Shown here one piece after another: positions 9,001 through 15,000 of a stretch of 64,000 nt of DNA. The stretch spans positions 60,698,001 to 60,762,000 of the forward strand of contig OZ241830.1 in the NCBI GenBank assembly GCA_965202585.1. Reading direction: 5' to 3'. A program made the position numbers. Every line of letters starts with the position of its first letter. Position 1 is the first letter of the stretch. Origin of the DNA: Thalia democratica (lineage: Eukaryota).

Positions 9001-12000
9001 GTAATAAAAATACTATGTTGATTAAAATTTTTAATATTCTACGTTGGTTTTTATTTTATTTATAAATAAATTTTAAGGCGCTGGATGTTGCTGAGAGACA
9101 TGACAGAATACATTTACGTTCAACTTATTATAATTATGCAAAATTTTTGGAGTCTTTAGGCGGATTTAAAGATGCAATTATGTAGTAAGTTTAATTTTAT
9201 TTAGTTTTGGTATATTGCAACAGTTATATAATGATTCAAATAATTTCAGCTATGAAAAATCAGGCACTCACCATTTTGAGGTGCCAAGAATGCTTTTTGA
9301 CGAACTTGATATGCTCGAATCTTATATTATGAATTCAAAAGATAGGTTAGTTTGAAATTTTTGAAATTTAACGTTTGTCTTTTTCATTTTTATAAAGTAG
9401 TTTTTAGTATTAACACTTAAAGTCTCCAATTTAAAACAACAAATATAGGAAAGGATTAATAACTTTAGTTTAAAAAAGTTTTTTTTAATAAAACGCTTAC
9501 TAATAGTAATTTTTTTAATTGTAAAAATTGATTTGGCTCAATTATTTTCATAACAAAAAGTATCTGATTTAACTTAAACAGAAAGTTTCGCAAATGGTGG
9601 GCACAATACATAGAATCAACAGGCGATATGGAAAATGCGTTGAAATTTTACCAACAAGCCGGAGACCCGTTGTCGCTCGTTAGAGTTTACAGTTACTGCG
9701 ACCAACTCGATAAAGTTTGTTAATATTTGCTCGAATATTTTTTCTTTTGAATGATTTTTGAAAATATTATAAAAAATTTAAAGATTGTTTGATATGTTTA
9801 ACCTAAATCAATTTGCTTAAATCACTTCAATTAAATTTTTTATTTTGTTATTTTAGTTCAATATTTTTTTTTTCAATAGTTAATATATTGTTTCTAGTAT
9901 TTTATGAAAGTTTGTCATTTAGATTTTAAACATACGAACTAATGCAGGCAGCTCAGGTAGCAAATGAAACGGGAAACAGGGCAGCCTGCTTCCATCTCGC
10001 CAGACAATATGAAAAAACTGATCAGCTCGACAAAGCAATCAACTTCTTTGCCCGCGCCATGGCTTACGGAAATGCTATTAGAATTTGTAAAGTTTGTCAC
10101 TTGATATTCGTATAAAAAAATATATAAGTTATAGCACATGTAGACAATGGACCAATTTATTTTGGTAATCAAAAACTTGAAGACTAATTGTTAACTTAAA
10201 CAAACAAAAATATATAATTTTCTTAAGTAAAATAAACAACGAAGTCAAAAATTTAGGCTATTTTATATCATAGACAATGTGTTTATTTTGGAAATTATCA
10301 AATTTAAATACTGTTCGTTGGTAATAAAATAAATTTAGGAACATGGGTTCGAGGAGCGGTTAATGAACATGGCACTTTTGAGTCCACCTCATGATATGGT
10401 TGAAGCTGCTAAATATTACGAACAAACTGACAACCTCATTGATAAAGCTGTTATGCTCTACCACAAGGTTTTCACTTGATTTTATCAGTGTTACTAGTTT
10501 TAGGTGTTTTTGTTTCTTTACAAGACAAAATTTAAAAGAAGTGCGCTTTTAAACTTTAAATAGTTTGTATGTAAAAATACAATGTCTGACATTAGTTATT
10601 TATATAAGTGTATGTGTTTTCATTACTTTATCACATATAAATAACTTTTGTTAAGACCCGTTAAACTTTCATATACAAAATTAAAGGAAATTTGTTTTAT
10701 ACACTGTAACTATTTTATGAGCAAATAGTTTTAATGCTTTTAATATCTTTGTGCATATTAAAAATAAATAATTCAATAACTATTTTATTAGTGTTTCATA
10801 AATAGTTTTCATAAAGTGTTTTGTGAGTTAAAAAATAATATTACAAATTTGAATCATTAAACAACGTTACAACAACGCAGGCGGGTCATTTTGCAAAGGC
10901 GATAGACCTGGCGTTCAAGTACGAACAGTTTGGCGCGCTGGAGCTCATTTCGGAGGATCTCAATGAAAACACGGACGCCAGCTTGCTGACGAAATGCGCG
11001 CAATTCTTCGCACAGCACGGTCAGCACGATCGAGCCATTAAGCTGCTCGTGTCCGCTAAAAACGTTTGTGCTTGTTCATGTTTCAATTCGAATAAACTTT
11101 ACACCTGAACGTTGTGTTACAGATCAAAGAAGCCATACAGGTTTGCAGCGACAACAACGTTCGCTTGACGGAAGAGCTCGTCGAAAAGCTGACCGTTTCC
11201 AGCGATCACCCCGAAATCACCCTCAAAGAGAGGTTTGTTGAAACTTATAATGAAAAATTGTGTTTTTATAACTGTAAATACTTTACAAGCAAGTATGTAG
11301 TATTTTTTTATTAGATGCATTAATTAAAAAATATCAACAACTATATCATCAGTCGTTCTACAGATAAACTTAACCAAGTTTTGTGTAAATCTAAAAAAAA
11401 ACTTTTTGATACAAGTTGTTGTTTAAAACTTCGGACTGCTGAATTTAAATTATTGATTAAGAAAAAATACATATTGTTCGATACAATCAAAAGGCAAAAG
11501 CAGCTGATGATGTTGGGCGACTGCTGCATGAAGCAGGGCGAGTACCTGTTGGCGTGCAAGAAGTACACGCAGTCGGGCAACGTGGACAAGGCGATGCGGG
11601 CTCTGCTGAAGTCGGGCGACACGCACAAGATAATCTATTACGCGAACACGAGCAAGCAGCGCGACCTGTTCGTCATGGCGGCGAACTACCTGCAGTCGCT
11701 CGACTGGCGCAACCACCCTGACGTAATGAACAACATCATCGCTTTTTACACGAAGGGAAAAGCTCACGAGTCGTTGGCCAACTTTTACGAGGCCTGCGCT
11801 CAGGTATGTTTTATGTTGAGCTTTTGAAATTTTTTTTTTTTAATAGTTAATAGCGTTGTTCTTTCTGCCTTAACTAAACATGTGCTAAGTTTGTATCTGA
11901 TATTTTTTTAAATTTTGACAAATTTTTATACAAAAATAAATTTCTGATTGCTTTGTTGACCAGTTTACAAAAAAAGAATGAAAACTAATTATGGTTTATA

Positions 12001-15000
12001 TTAATTTTCCAATAAATATTCAGATACGTTGTAGCAATTTTTCTGATCTAATTTTTTGTATCTGAATAATTAATAGTAGTTTAAAGGCTTGTATACTTTT
12101 TTGTGTGTTTTATTTGTTTGTAATTTTACTAAGTTGTTTGATTTTTTTTCAAGCGTTTTAAAATTTGTAAACAGGTAGAAATAGATGAATATCAAAATTA
12201 TGAAAAAGCAGTCGGTGCATTGACTGAAGCTTTTAAGTGTTTGTCAAAATCAAAAATTGAAGATAATGAAGAAAAAGAAAACAAATTGACAAGTTTAAAA
12301 ACAAAAATAGCACTTGTTAAAAAATTTGTCTCAACAAGAAGGTAGTTATATATTTATCATTTGTTTTTCAAAATAAAAAAAGTTTATATTTTATTTATTA
12401 GTTATGAGTAAATATTTCAAGATCAATTAAATTCCTTTTTTATTAATTGAAAATATCTTTTGAAAGCTATATTAAACGCAAAAACGCTTTTATTCTAGTA
12501 AAATATTCTAATTTTTTTAAAGTTTGTTAAAAGCTGTTTTAACTAATAAAAAAACTTTTTATAATACTTACCTACAATACTTCAAAGAAAATTGCAGAAG
12601 CAATAATTTTTTTACTTAATACTATTATTGCTCATAAAAAGCCTTGTTGTATTATTCTAATGTATAGTTTATACAAAATACAACTTTTATTTTATGCTTT
12701 TTAGTAAAAATTTGTTTAATTTCTGTTATTTTTCTGAATGCAAAAACAATTTTTTTTATGAACTATAAGTTGAGCTCAACGTTACTTTTATTTAATTTTT
12801 TATAATTATAAGTCGATAGTAATTTTAACAAAAAAGTGTTTTCATCAAAGATTGTTCGAAAGTGATGCGGAAGAAGGATTGAAGCAATGTTCAGTTCTTC
12901 TCGATCACGCCGATCTCTCTTCGTCTCCAGTCAGATACGGAGACGTTTACGCGTTGATCATCGAACATTATGTCAGCCAACAACAATTCGAACGAGTAAT
13001 TATAATTTGTTTATATTTTTCGTTACAGGATACATCTTTAATTTATTCATTAACAAATTGAATTTTTTCATTATAAAAGTTTATTTGTCAACCAAATTAA
13101 TATATTAAAAATCATGTTTTTTCAAATTTTTAATGTTTGTTAACCAATTGAACTTAAGTGCTAACGGAACGTTTTTGAGTTGCTAATGTTTCCCCGAATT
13201 CAAAATAGTTGTTTATTATGTAATAAAGTAATTATGAAAGGCGTACGAGTACGTGTTGGAAGTGAAGGAGAGAGTTCCGACGATCCGCCTCCACCACTTC
13301 GTCTCCTCCGCCGCTCTCCACCAAATATCAGCCAATCAGCATCCGCAATCAGAATCGTCCTCACATGATGACGGATCGTCGGCAGATGTGAAAGAGGAAA
13401 TTTACCAAGACGACAATATCACAACACACAGTTTCGCTTTTCGATGAAGAATGTTTATTTTGTAACAGCAGAGAGTTTAATATCAAAGTTTTTTAGATCT
13501 TATTTTTAATTTAAGTTTTGTTTATCAAATGATTGTTTATTCAAGCCAACAAAACAATTTTTAACTGTGATTTTTTGTTACCTAAGTTTTTCTGTACTTT
13601 AAGTGTTTACCTTTTTGGTATATTTAAGATTGTTTTTAGTTTAATTTTTATTTTGCGTTATTCACTGATTTCAATTAAAATTTTTTAATGTTTTTTTAGT
13701 TATTTTTGAGACTTCAGATTTAATAAATACTTCTGGTATAAAATATCAAGTGTTATAGAAAATTTTAACTTATTTAAGAAAATGCTTTTCATTACTTGTT
13801 AAAAATATTTTTTAACTAAACTGAAATATAATCATTTGGTATTGATATAACCATACATATTTTTTAATAGACATCTAACTAATTTAAAAGTTTATTTGTA
13901 GTAAAGTAATTAGTAATTATTACATTAAATAAATGAAAAGTAAAATTATTAATTTAATTTTGTATGTGCTCGTTAAAGTATAAGTTAAAATCGTATCTGC
14001 ATTTTGTTTAAATGTTGCAAATTTTATTTTTTTATTACTCTATTGTTAGAATTTTAAACTTTTACAAGAAACCTAGATGTTTTTTATTTGTATCAATTAC
14101 CATTGATAAGCTAAATTCTAAAAAAGAATTACTTTGGTAAACTATACAAAATAAAGCAAGCTTTGAAAGAATAAATCTCATCTAGCAAACATATTTTTTC
14201 TGTTGTACATAACTTTTATCTATAATTAAACTTTTTTATTAGTAAAAGTTTGTAAATATGTTCAATCAAGATAACTATAAATTCGGTTTAATTTTCTCCA
14301 AATAACGCGGTAAGCCAGCGGTTTTTTTGTGGTTTTTGTTTTTAAAAATAAAAATGAAATAAGTGTTACACATTCATCATTCAGTGATCACAAACTAAAC
14401 AATACAAAAAAATAACCCCGTGTTCATAGTTTATTTTAAAACTAAATTAACAATAATTTCAATAGACTCTACCATTAAATATGAGAGTTTTAATTTCAGT
14501 TAAACAAATTTATTGACATTTTGTAAAATAAAAATTTTCAAGAACATTATATTATTCACAACATAAAATCAACGGTATAATTATAGGTCAGCTGTAGTAG
14601 TAGGAGATTATTTTGTTCACAATCTTGTGCAAACAAGATGAGGTAATAACACAGTTGGTAAAAAATTAATGTATTTTGAACAATTATAATTAAGCTTTTG
14701 TCTTTAAAGCAAAAGTTGTATGTAAAGGATCTGTATAACCACCTCCCCTTATAATTTTTTACTCTTTTTCTCAAAAACTTAACATTTTAGTGTTATATCA
14801 AGTAACTTAGTTCTTTACTTTTCAAGTAAATTATATTTTTCTAAAATTTTAAGGAAATATGAATTTTGAAATAAAAGTTTCGAATCTATGACTGTTTGTT
14901 TTAATTATTGCGTTTTTTAACATACTTATTGCGTTTTTTAACATACTTATTAACTTTTGTTTAAGTTGTAAGTGTTCCTAGATTTACACCTTTTCGTTAA

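Follow-up and report, generated by a model that had tools for sequence, protein, structure and literature searches.

An exon-by-exon mosaic of synonymous GC content in two genes of Thalia democratica

The GC content of exons and of their synonymous sites is usually ascribed to forces that act on a region (isochores, gene conversion) or on a whole gene (translation, expression). In the part of the Thalia democratica genome described here, a window of 64,000 bases from contig OZ241830.1 (the whole stretch of DNA that was analyzed), each exon behaves as a unit of its own. IFT140, which encodes an intraflagellar transport complex A subunit, and WASHC4 (SWIP), the gene for WASH complex subunit 4, carry a mosaic of GC content at third codon positions (GC3), and all exon statistics given below refer to their 29 and 24 exons, respectively. 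Among described systems, Amit et al. (Cell Rep, 2012) are said to have found a differential exon-intron GC architecture that is used for exon definition in vertebrates. Our locus resembles it in that exons are GC-richer than the AT-rich introns, that the contrast lies at the splice sites, and that a marking for the splicing machinery or for nucleosomes is proposed. In vertebrates, however, this architecture characterizes entire genes that have long introns and lie in low-GC regions, whereas here the introns are short (59 to 1,409 bp), the contrast goes from nearly none to extreme between neighboring exons, and GC3 is unrelated to intron length. The available part of PMC6142364 limits the role of an exon-above-intron GC contrast in exon definition to vertebrates and one annelid.

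A second relevant idea is the unwanted-transcript hypothesis. As set out in the accessible portion of PMC11865589, synonymous GC marks native transcripts, and selection acts via RNA processing or export, not translation. The same portion frames the hypothesis for mammals with small populations, predicts more GC where introns are scarce, and expects native transcripts to be CpG-poor. Here, by contrast, the long exons are the GC-rich ones, and GC-rich exons retain CpG.

GC-biased gene conversion (gBGC) shares with our locus a directional force from weak (A/T) to strong (G/C) pairs that raises GC3, preserves CpG, and is able to shift amino-acid content. It has been linked to GC3 in birds and plants as well. 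In humans, according to the available part of PMC5576983, GC3 and intron GC are shaped jointly by gene conversion. In these cases, GC3 follows the surrounding noncoding GC over kilobases or more, whereas here it does not follow intron GC and stops at the splice site. Plant genes offer a likeness of another kind, since in them, too, GC3 varies systematically within genes and exon-intron structure matters. Glemin et al. (2014) and Ressayre et al. (2015) reportedly described 5'-to-3' GC3 gradients and intron-structured GC3 steps in such genes. The plant gradient is highest in the first exons and falls toward the 3' end. A change of GC3 from 5' to 3' is also what the available text of PMC3762193 reports. 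In our two genes, the direction is the opposite of the plant one: GC3 climbs toward the 3' end (partial r of 0.45), and neighboring exons differ by up to 0.74.

For T. democratica itself, the accessible text of PMC13746493 gives a genome GC of 25.3%, which coding GC exceeds by almost 17 points, and GC3 values that are broadly distributed. Our window, which contains zero N, is similar, with 26.7% GC overall and a pooled exon GC of 42% in IFT140 and WASHC4. The published values, as far as that text goes, are whole-genome and per-gene averages with no description of differences between exons within a gene, whereas ours are differences between exons of one gene. Full-text literature searches, which left most subscription journals outside their reach, found no published exon-by-exon GC3 mosaic in an AT-rich animal genome. 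An exon-intron GC contrast is known for vertebrates; near-maximal GC3 swings between adjacent exons, bounded at splice sites, are not described in the parts of the compared sources that were available.

Third-position GC content changes from exon to exon

The sequence-only reading of this stretch had singled out two neighboring IFT140 exons on the plus strand, and its counts were reproduced. The first exon (11494..11803, 310 bp, frame from 11495) has 103 codons, 90 of them ending in G or C and 13 in A or T (GC3 of 0.87), with an exon GC of 0.56 and a CpG observed/expected ratio (o/e) of 1.19; it matches Pfam TPR_IF140-IFT172 (E of 3e-37). It is followed by an intron of 371 bp (11804..12174), AT-rich from its first bases and with a GC of 0.26 and 0.23 in the 100-bp flanks. 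In the next exon (12175..12341, 167 bp), which matches Pfam TPR_IF140_C (E of 6e-18), only 7 of 55 codons end in G or C (GC3 of 0.13) and the CpG o/e is 0.37; this exon is the longest among the AT-rich exons of the set. Adjacent exons can differ by 0.74 in GC3, and the amplitude is close to the possible maximum, with 0.87 standing next to 0.13 across a sharp boundary.

The same reading held that the mosaic recurs in both genes. All six IFT140 exons that it listed bear this out, as follows: on the GC-rich side 6266..6571 (306 bp, GC3 of 0.76, GC of 0.57, CpG o/e of 1.32), 8070..8241 (172 bp, GC3 of 0.67), and 10881..11063 (GC3 of 0.67), and on the AT-rich side 524..654 (GC3 of 0.19), 5708..5835 (GC3 of 0.31), and 9078..9181 (GC3 of 0.21). 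Two of them form pairs with a neighbor of their own kind: 10881..11063 with 11123..11232 (GC3 of 0.69) across a 59-bp intron whose core has a GC of 0.30, and 9078..9181 with 9250..9345 (GC3 of 0.29) across a 68-bp intron. The last IFT140 exon (13241..13447), which holds the stop codon, has a GC3 of 0.57. For WASHC4, on the minus strand, the GC-rich exons stood, namely, 46020..46222 (203 bp, GC3 of 0.75), 52557..52700 (144 bp, GC3 of 0.79), and 53652..53837 (186 bp, GC3 of 0.74). The AT-rich exon drawn at 58807-59278 did not; it consists of two exons, 58807..58953 (GC3 of 0.21) and 59110..59263 (GC3 of 0.28), separated by a 156-bp intron, and its end runs a few bases into an in-frame intron of 87 bp. 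The per-exon range of GC3 is 0.13 to 0.87 for IFT140 and 0.21 to 0.79 for WASHC4, and the values are spread continuously over the 53 exons, with no division into two states.

GC3 heterogeneity exceeds the binomial expectation in IFT140 (chi-square of 218.2, df of 28, P = 2e-31) and in WASHC4 (chi-square of 127.1, df of 23, P = 2e-16), the variance being 5.5 to 7.8 times binomial. Nor does amino-acid composition account for it. With the G/C-ending probability of each codon set by its amino acid, the sum of squared z values was 356 over the 53 exons, and the two focal exons had z values of +8.0 (11494-11803) and -4.7 (12175-12341). For the comparisons that follow, we used cut-offs of our own and, excluding the truncated first exon, grouped the exons into high (HI; GC3 of at least 0.57, 15 exons), intermediate (MID; 19 exons), and low (LO; GC3 below 0.35, 18 exons) classes. 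A regional state shared by neighboring exons was set aside as an explanation, the lag-1 rho being 0.07 in IFT140 and 0.21 in WASHC4, neither of them significant.

Both genes were modeled from proteins, and every protein search and domain scan was run per exon or on unbroken stretches of the window. IFT140 (3..13447, plus strand) runs from approximately residue 86 to the stop codon in 29 exons, its 5' end lying beyond the window. It was traced by tblastn with named tunicate and amphioxus IFT140 proteins, and splice sites and phases agree along the exon chain. Single exons matched Pfam Beta-prop_IFT140_2nd (3e-12), TPR_IF140-IFT172 (the match given above and two others, at 8e-20 and 8e-18), and TPR_IF140_C in the domain order of the orthologues, and the exons are collinear with IFT140 of Clavelina, Ciona, Styela, and Branchiostoma. 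The nearest named proteins are those of tunicates, with 70% identity to Clavelina and 68% to Ciona on the focal exon. Boundaries are less certain for exons 3259-3395, 3690-3867, and 4500-4603. WASHC4 (45261..60823, minus strand) extends from residue 10 to the stop codon in 24 exons, the first coding exon not being located. Its exon chain was solved against the JGI protein P0126, which is 94 to 100% identical to each exon and, judged by this identity, comes from the same or a very close species. Pfam WASH-4_N, WASH-7_mid, and WASH-7_C were found in order on single exons, at 4e-16, 2e-12, 1e-8, and 5e-13, and the gene is collinear with the Branchiostoma SWIP-like protein P0129.

That chance, amino-acid content, or wrong exon models could be the source of the mosaic was tested in the window and rejected, and we give it practically no weight. 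It is true that one exon of the sequence-only reading had been mis-drawn, that three IFT140 exons have uncertain boundaries, and that the class cut-offs were self-chosen. Against this stand the excess over binomial variance, its persistence with amino acids controlled, the match of the WASHC4 exons to an independent protein, and a second copy of part of IFT140 in which GC3 per exon is the same. The exon-by-exon GC3 mosaic is confirmed as real.

Exon boundaries, exon length, and base usage

The outer 15 nucleotides of HI exons have a GC3 of 0.55, compared with 0.67 to 0.89 further inside, in agreement with the earlier remark that GC-rich exons are AT-richer at their edges; in LO exons, GC3 is 0.24 to 0.31 over the whole exon. 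On the other side of the splice site, introns have a GC content of 0.195 at 7 to 40 bp from HI exons and 0.194 at the same distance from LO exons, and intron core GC is uncorrelated with the GC3 of the flanking exons (rho of 0.23, P = 0.11, n = 51). The true exon boundaries of IFT140 yielded a higher chi-square than all 1,375 circular shifts and all 2,000 permutations of exon-length order, and chi-square dropped steadily when the boundaries were shifted by 3 to 25 codons. The circular shifts, together with the equal intron GC beside both classes, support the proposal of a force that works on the scale of the exon. Distance from the splice site alone was rejected as the cause, since at equal distances GC3 is 0.57 to 0.89 in exons of at least 170 bp and 0.21 to 0.49 in shorter ones. 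With an exon GC of 0.26 to 0.57 against a GC of mostly 0.13 to 0.33 in the 100-bp flanks, the two genes show the excess of exon GC over flanking intron GC that belongs to a differential exon-intron GC architecture. The excess is near zero in exon 12175-12341 (0.26, compared with 0.23 and 0.14 in its flanks). The pattern is not that of a gBGC hotspot or GC island, as GC enrichment fails to reach the adjoining intron at 7 to 40 bp and GC3 does not track intron GC.

GC-rich exons are longer, as the sequence-only reading had noticed. GC3 correlates with exon length (Spearman coefficient of 0.45, P = 8e-4), and HI exons make up 8 of the 9 exons of at least 170 bp and 7 of the 43 shorter ones (Fisher test, P = 7e-5). 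GC3 also rises with exon index (rho of 0.42, P = 0.002), that is, not along a plant-type 5'-to-3' gradient. Exon length and rank have partial r values of approximately 0.45 each, and the residual chi-square is 166 on 49 df. A third correlate, spotted by eye before testing and therefore post hoc, is divisibility of exon length by three, which applies to 9 of 14 internal HI exons (8 of them phase 0-0) versus 2 of 16 LO exons (Fisher test, P = 0.007) and persists with the length effect removed (P = 0.024).

At 4-fold sites, HI exons have a G content of 0.39 to 0.42 and a C content of 0.25 to 0.31. LO exons have a T content of 0.46 to 0.50 and an A content of 0.27 to 0.30, near the composition of introns (A of 0.35 to 0.37, T of 0.41 to 0.42); the 4-fold sites of AT-rich exons are approximately 24% GC, and introns are 22% GC. 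In this respect, LO exons look like sequence at the AT-rich equilibrium of the genome. Base preferences follow the coding strand in both genes, which sit on opposite strands. All 2-fold families flip between HI and LO exons; AAG, for example, accounts for 33 of 54 lysine codons in GC-rich exons but for 16 of 75 in AT-rich ones. The proteins are affected, too: compared with orthologues, the amino-acid content of LO exons has moved by -0.10 toward FYMINK residues (one-letter code) and that of HI exons by -0.02, and GC3 correlates with this shift over the 53 exons (Spearman coefficient of 0.35, P = 0.011). The sequence-only reading had dismissed translational selection acting per mRNA, and the flip of codon preferences between exons, together with the drift of AT-rich exons to FYMINK residues, bears out that dismissal.

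A variant of this idea lets translational codon selection vary along the mRNA, with fast G/C-ending and slow A/T-ending segments serving cotranslational folding and happening to coincide with exons. The coding-strand preferences in both genes and the conservation of synonymous sites described below are consistent with it, as are discontinuities at exon junctions that are not significantly above the differences between blocks within exons. Yet the change points in IFT140 coincide with exon boundaries, amino-acid content moves with GC3, and AT-rich exons have intron base composition with no visible codon preference. GC3 is, moreover, unrelated to protein conservation (absolute rho of at most 0.23 against seven reference proteins), and a dependence on exon length, in bases and modulo three, would not be expected. 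We consider this variant very improbable.

The earlier statement that GC-rich exons are CpG-rich was likewise borne out, the pooled CpG o/e being 1.07 in HI, 0.90 in MID, and 0.44 in LO exons and 0.66 in introns; GpC o/e stays at 1.1 to 1.3 across classes. NCG codons are avoided in LO exons (6 of 136 4-fold NCN codons) and not in HI exons (63 of 158). A CpG island is commonly defined by a length of at least 200 bp, a GC content of at least 50%, and a CpG o/e of at least 0.6. Exons 11494-11803 and 6266-6571 pass these thresholds, whereas the majority of the remaining GC-rich exons fall short of 200 bp. These islands coincide with exon limits, and this would not be predicted from a role as promoters.

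Two copies of the IFT140 3' half and the favored explanation

A second copy (35579..45793, plus strand) of window positions 6824-15597, approximately 94% identical, carries the last 14 IFT140 exons (36041-42110) and no 5' exons. All 14 exons are open and show the same GC3 mosaic. The duplicated segment of 8.8 kb comprises these exons and the 3' flank, and the copies lie approximately 28.7 kb apart. Noncoding divergence between them is 5.5% (347 of 6,342 sites) and remains 4.7% within 10 bp of exons. Alignment error was rejected as the origin of the high intron divergence, which is still 5.1% at positions with no gap within 10 columns and 3.5% when only isolated mismatches are counted. Exons, by comparison, differ at 14 of 2,127 sites (0.66%), including 9 of 709 third positions (1.3%), with four amino-acid differences. 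All 54 indel events are noncoding, none falling within the 2,127 exon bases. The noncoding differences, which are unpolarized, include 127 sites with G/C in the first copy and A/T in the second and 117 with the opposite arrangement.

From noncoding rates, 34.5 synonymous third-position differences were expected and 9 were seen (HI, 19.0 versus 5; MID, 11.5 versus 4; LO, 4.0 versus 0). Exon 11494-11803 has zero third-position differences, compared with 6.3 synonymous differences expected. Silent sites are therefore nonneutral, their rate of evolution being approximately one-fourth that of introns only a few bases away, and both IFT140 copies are constrained, be it as paralogues or as haplotypes placed in tandem. 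Low synonymous divergence cannot by itself identify the force behind GC, since the constraint is general to exons. Slow synonymous evolution beside fast introns does, however, argue against tract-like homogenization, from which a less distinct boundary would be expected. Conversion between the two IFT140 copies was rejected as the cause of exon identity; divergence has no gradient toward exons (the 4.7% being found at 1 to 10 bp), and the same mosaic is carried by the unduplicated WASHC4 and by exon 6266-6571, which lies outside the duplicated segment.

There are three candidate explanations for the second copy: a young duplication whose copies are both under constraint, an alternative 3' half, and a pair of haplotypes that the assembler put in tandem. 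A stretch of approximately 1.5 kb (44122-45653), which holds the last WASHC4 exon (45261-45401), is found only in the second copy. Homology resumes at 15458-15597 and 45654-45793, within the last WASHC4 intron, which means that the duplicated unit extended into WASHC4 and that the first copy lost that exon.

Another form of gene conversion has to be weighed against these data. In it, gBGC would work through short tracts and be confined to long exons that are nearly identical between haplotypes, because heteroduplex rejection would end conversion tracts in introns that are approximately 5% divergent and rich in indels. The process would reinforce itself, each weak-to-strong fixation making the exon more uniform and CpG-rich. 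It would be in keeping with the gulf in divergence and indels between introns and exons, with the strong length dependence and its step near 170 bp, with the CpG kept in GC-rich exons, and with an effect on all codon positions and on amino-acid content. The few differences at G/C third positions are what a weak-to-strong force of approximately 3 would give, and the small GC excess in introns 41 to 150 bp away (see below) fits as well. Still, there is no GC excess at 7 to 40 bp into the intron, although that stretch differs by 4.7 to 5.1% and looks unconstrained, and intron GC is uncorrelated with flanking GC3. The excess of multiples of three among GC-rich exons finds no place in the model, and exons of 144 and 105 bp are GC-rich while the 167-bp exon is the most AT-rich. 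Exon-confined gBGC is in our view unlikely, and it ranks ahead of the other two rival forces.

Less likely still is a mutation or repair bias limited to exons, in which a positioned nucleosome, or escape from germline cytosine methylation, would spare some exons G/C-to-A/T mutations and so keep their GC and CpG, while methylated or linker-like exons would decay toward the composition of introns. The fall of CpG o/e from GC-rich to AT-rich exons and the avoidance of NCG codons in the latter point this way. In noncoding DNA, CpG is somewhat more changeable than GpC (19.7% versus 11.6% per dinucleotide), with 20 of 23 changes leading to TG or CA. GC-rich exons mostly exceed one nucleosome in length, and two of them pass the CpG-island thresholds. 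Loss of CpG cannot, however, account for a change from AAG to AAA or from GAG to GAA, and the codons for K, E, Q, N, D, F, Y, and H all flip. The CpG hypermutability is modest (approximately 1.7-fold), and such a bias would not, on its own, cut synonymous divergence 4-fold, would not end within approximately 20 bp of the splice site, and would not be expected to depend on length modulo three.

A selective explanation fits better than these processes. Regional neutral processes, whether conversion or nucleosome- or methylation-related mutation bias, are disfavored because GC fails to leak into the adjacent intron, apart from a 4-point excess beyond 40 bp. Translational selection does not fit the exon-to-exon flip, the intron-like codon usage of LO exons, and the amino-acid shift. 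We thus infer, tentatively and as the reading we favor, selection on nucleotide content that is bounded by exons and tied to pre-mRNA processing, with splicing or exon recognition as its putative target. Of the three candidate forces named by the sequence-only reading, sequence-based exon recognition would fit best, whereas gene conversion and nucleosome-linked mutation or repair fit poorly with the sharp boundary and with introns that are approximately 5% divergent up to the exon edge and yet approximately 20% GC.

Under the favored explanation, the genome would sit at an AT-rich mutational equilibrium, and certain exons would be kept away from it by a directional force that has its limits at the splice sites. 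This force would favor G and C, including CpG, mainly at synonymous sites, and would also resist AT drift at sites that change amino acids. It would act on the base composition that the exon presents in the pre-mRNA or, while being transcribed, on chromatin, GC richness marking the exon as an exon within a transcript that is otherwise approximately 78% A+U. Exons that are hardest or costliest to misprocess would need it most: long ones, those located in the 3' half of the gene, and those with a length divisible by three, as skipping of the last would keep the reading frame and escape nonsense-mediated decay. A hand calculation with GC* = 1/(1 + 3.5 e^-B) places the force B at approximately 3 for a GC3 of 0.87 and approximately 0 in AT-rich exons. 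Taken a step further, some exons might wear a GC armour of their own, being driven to G/C and CpG at synonymous and even at some amino-acid sites so that they are recognizable and guarded from misprocessing. The armour would be concentrated where failure costs most or is least noticed by quality control, on long exons and those of length 3n. This extension we hold to be rather unlikely.

Several observations weigh against selection on pre-mRNA processing. The sample consists of two genes. Exon length and position jointly cover only 44% of the between-exon variance, as illustrated by a GC3 of 0.13 in a 167-bp exon and 0.79 in a 144-bp exon. The sequence-only reading had suggested that GC3 be compared with splice-site strength and flanking intron length, and neither comparison gave a correlation in the two genes: for acceptor and donor scores, absolute rho was at most 0.20 (P > 0.15), and for upstream, downstream, minimum, and summed intron lengths, rho was 0.09 to 0.13 (P > 0.36). 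The contrast does not go with long flanking introns here, unlike in the architecture used for exon definition. Cryptic poly(A) signals, donor- and acceptor-like motifs, and homopolymer runs were within expectation in 1,000 synonymous shuffles per class, a test of low power. In mammals, the authors of the unwanted-transcript hypothesis tested for a 4-fold GC excess in longer exons and found none, according to the available part of their preprint, bioRxiv 10.1101/2024.04.23.590689. Intron GC at 41 to 150 bp is 0.247 beside GC-rich exons and 0.208 beside AT-rich exons (P = 0.003), which suggests some minor spillover at the DNA level. The boundary test was not significant in WASHC4, where 123 of 1,130 shifts reached the true value and support is only local, and steps at junctions (0.194) did not differ significantly from those between 12-codon blocks within exons (0.147; P = 0.17). 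Synonymous conservation is equal in MID and AT-rich exons, with 4 differences seen and 15.5 expected. Finally, the copies may be paralogues or haplotypes, and which of the two they are fixes the meaning of the contrast between 5.5% and 1.3% divergence.

Further features of the window and meaning of the mosaic

The 87-bp WASHC4 intron (59264-59350, minus strand) is open in frame, so that the open reading frame (ORF) runs through it, and P0126 is without these 29 residues. The 68-bp IFT140 intron 9182-9249 is similarly in frame. At 51 donor sites of both genes, GTTTGT leads among the hexamers with 9 of 51, ahead of GTCAGT (4), and GTAAGT occurs only 3 times; U2-type donors of animals do not usually have T at positions +3 and +4. 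The nearest relatives are JGI proteins on short contigs, namely, P0126, P0127 (63 to 100% identity per exon), and the IFT140 fragment P0004 (62 to 89% identity on most exons covered, 30% on the last exon). Judged by these matches, the organism or its kin is present in public environmental data.

GC islands outside exons occur at 7827-8001 and 36528-36700, the same intron site in both copies, and at 31118-31325. The first is CpG-depleted (CpG o/e of 0.26), unlike the GC-rich exons. The islands at 7827-8001 and 31118-31325 look like copies of a dispersed element, since a conceptual peptide motif is common to both. A dispersed repeat of approximately 250 bp, 80 to 86% identical, is present in both orientations (8395-8639, 37069-37317, 51025-51272, and 30615-30699) and sits in introns of both genes and between genes. 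An IFT140 intron contains a tandem repeat of approximately 178 bp in about three copies with 90 to 92% identity (3896-4423), and a direct repeat of approximately 580 bp with 89% identity (15744-16319 and 19600-20160) lies between the two IFT140 copies. On a further GC island, the ORF 18956-19123 (minus strand) matches Pfam CUB (E of 7e-5, above the cut-off) and probably belongs, as an exon, to a third gene located between 15.6 and 35.6 kb. Among the 34 ORFs outside both genes that were scanned with Pfam, this was the single match above the cut-off, the other 33 giving none. Rfam and tRNA scans of the window gave no matches.

If the mosaic were to hold genome-wide, T. democratica would offer a system in which selection on pre-mRNA composition can be separated from gene conversion and mutation bias. 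It would also provide a gauge of the strength of selection on "silent" sites in a very large, very polymorphic population and a way to ask what makes GC necessary in some exons and dispensable in others. In practical terms, gene finders, codon-usage indices, and dating based on synonymous divergence (dS) would be misled in such a genome. Were the proposed exon armour true, synonymous sites would carry an exon-autonomous processing code that overrides mutation bias by a scaled force of approximately 3.

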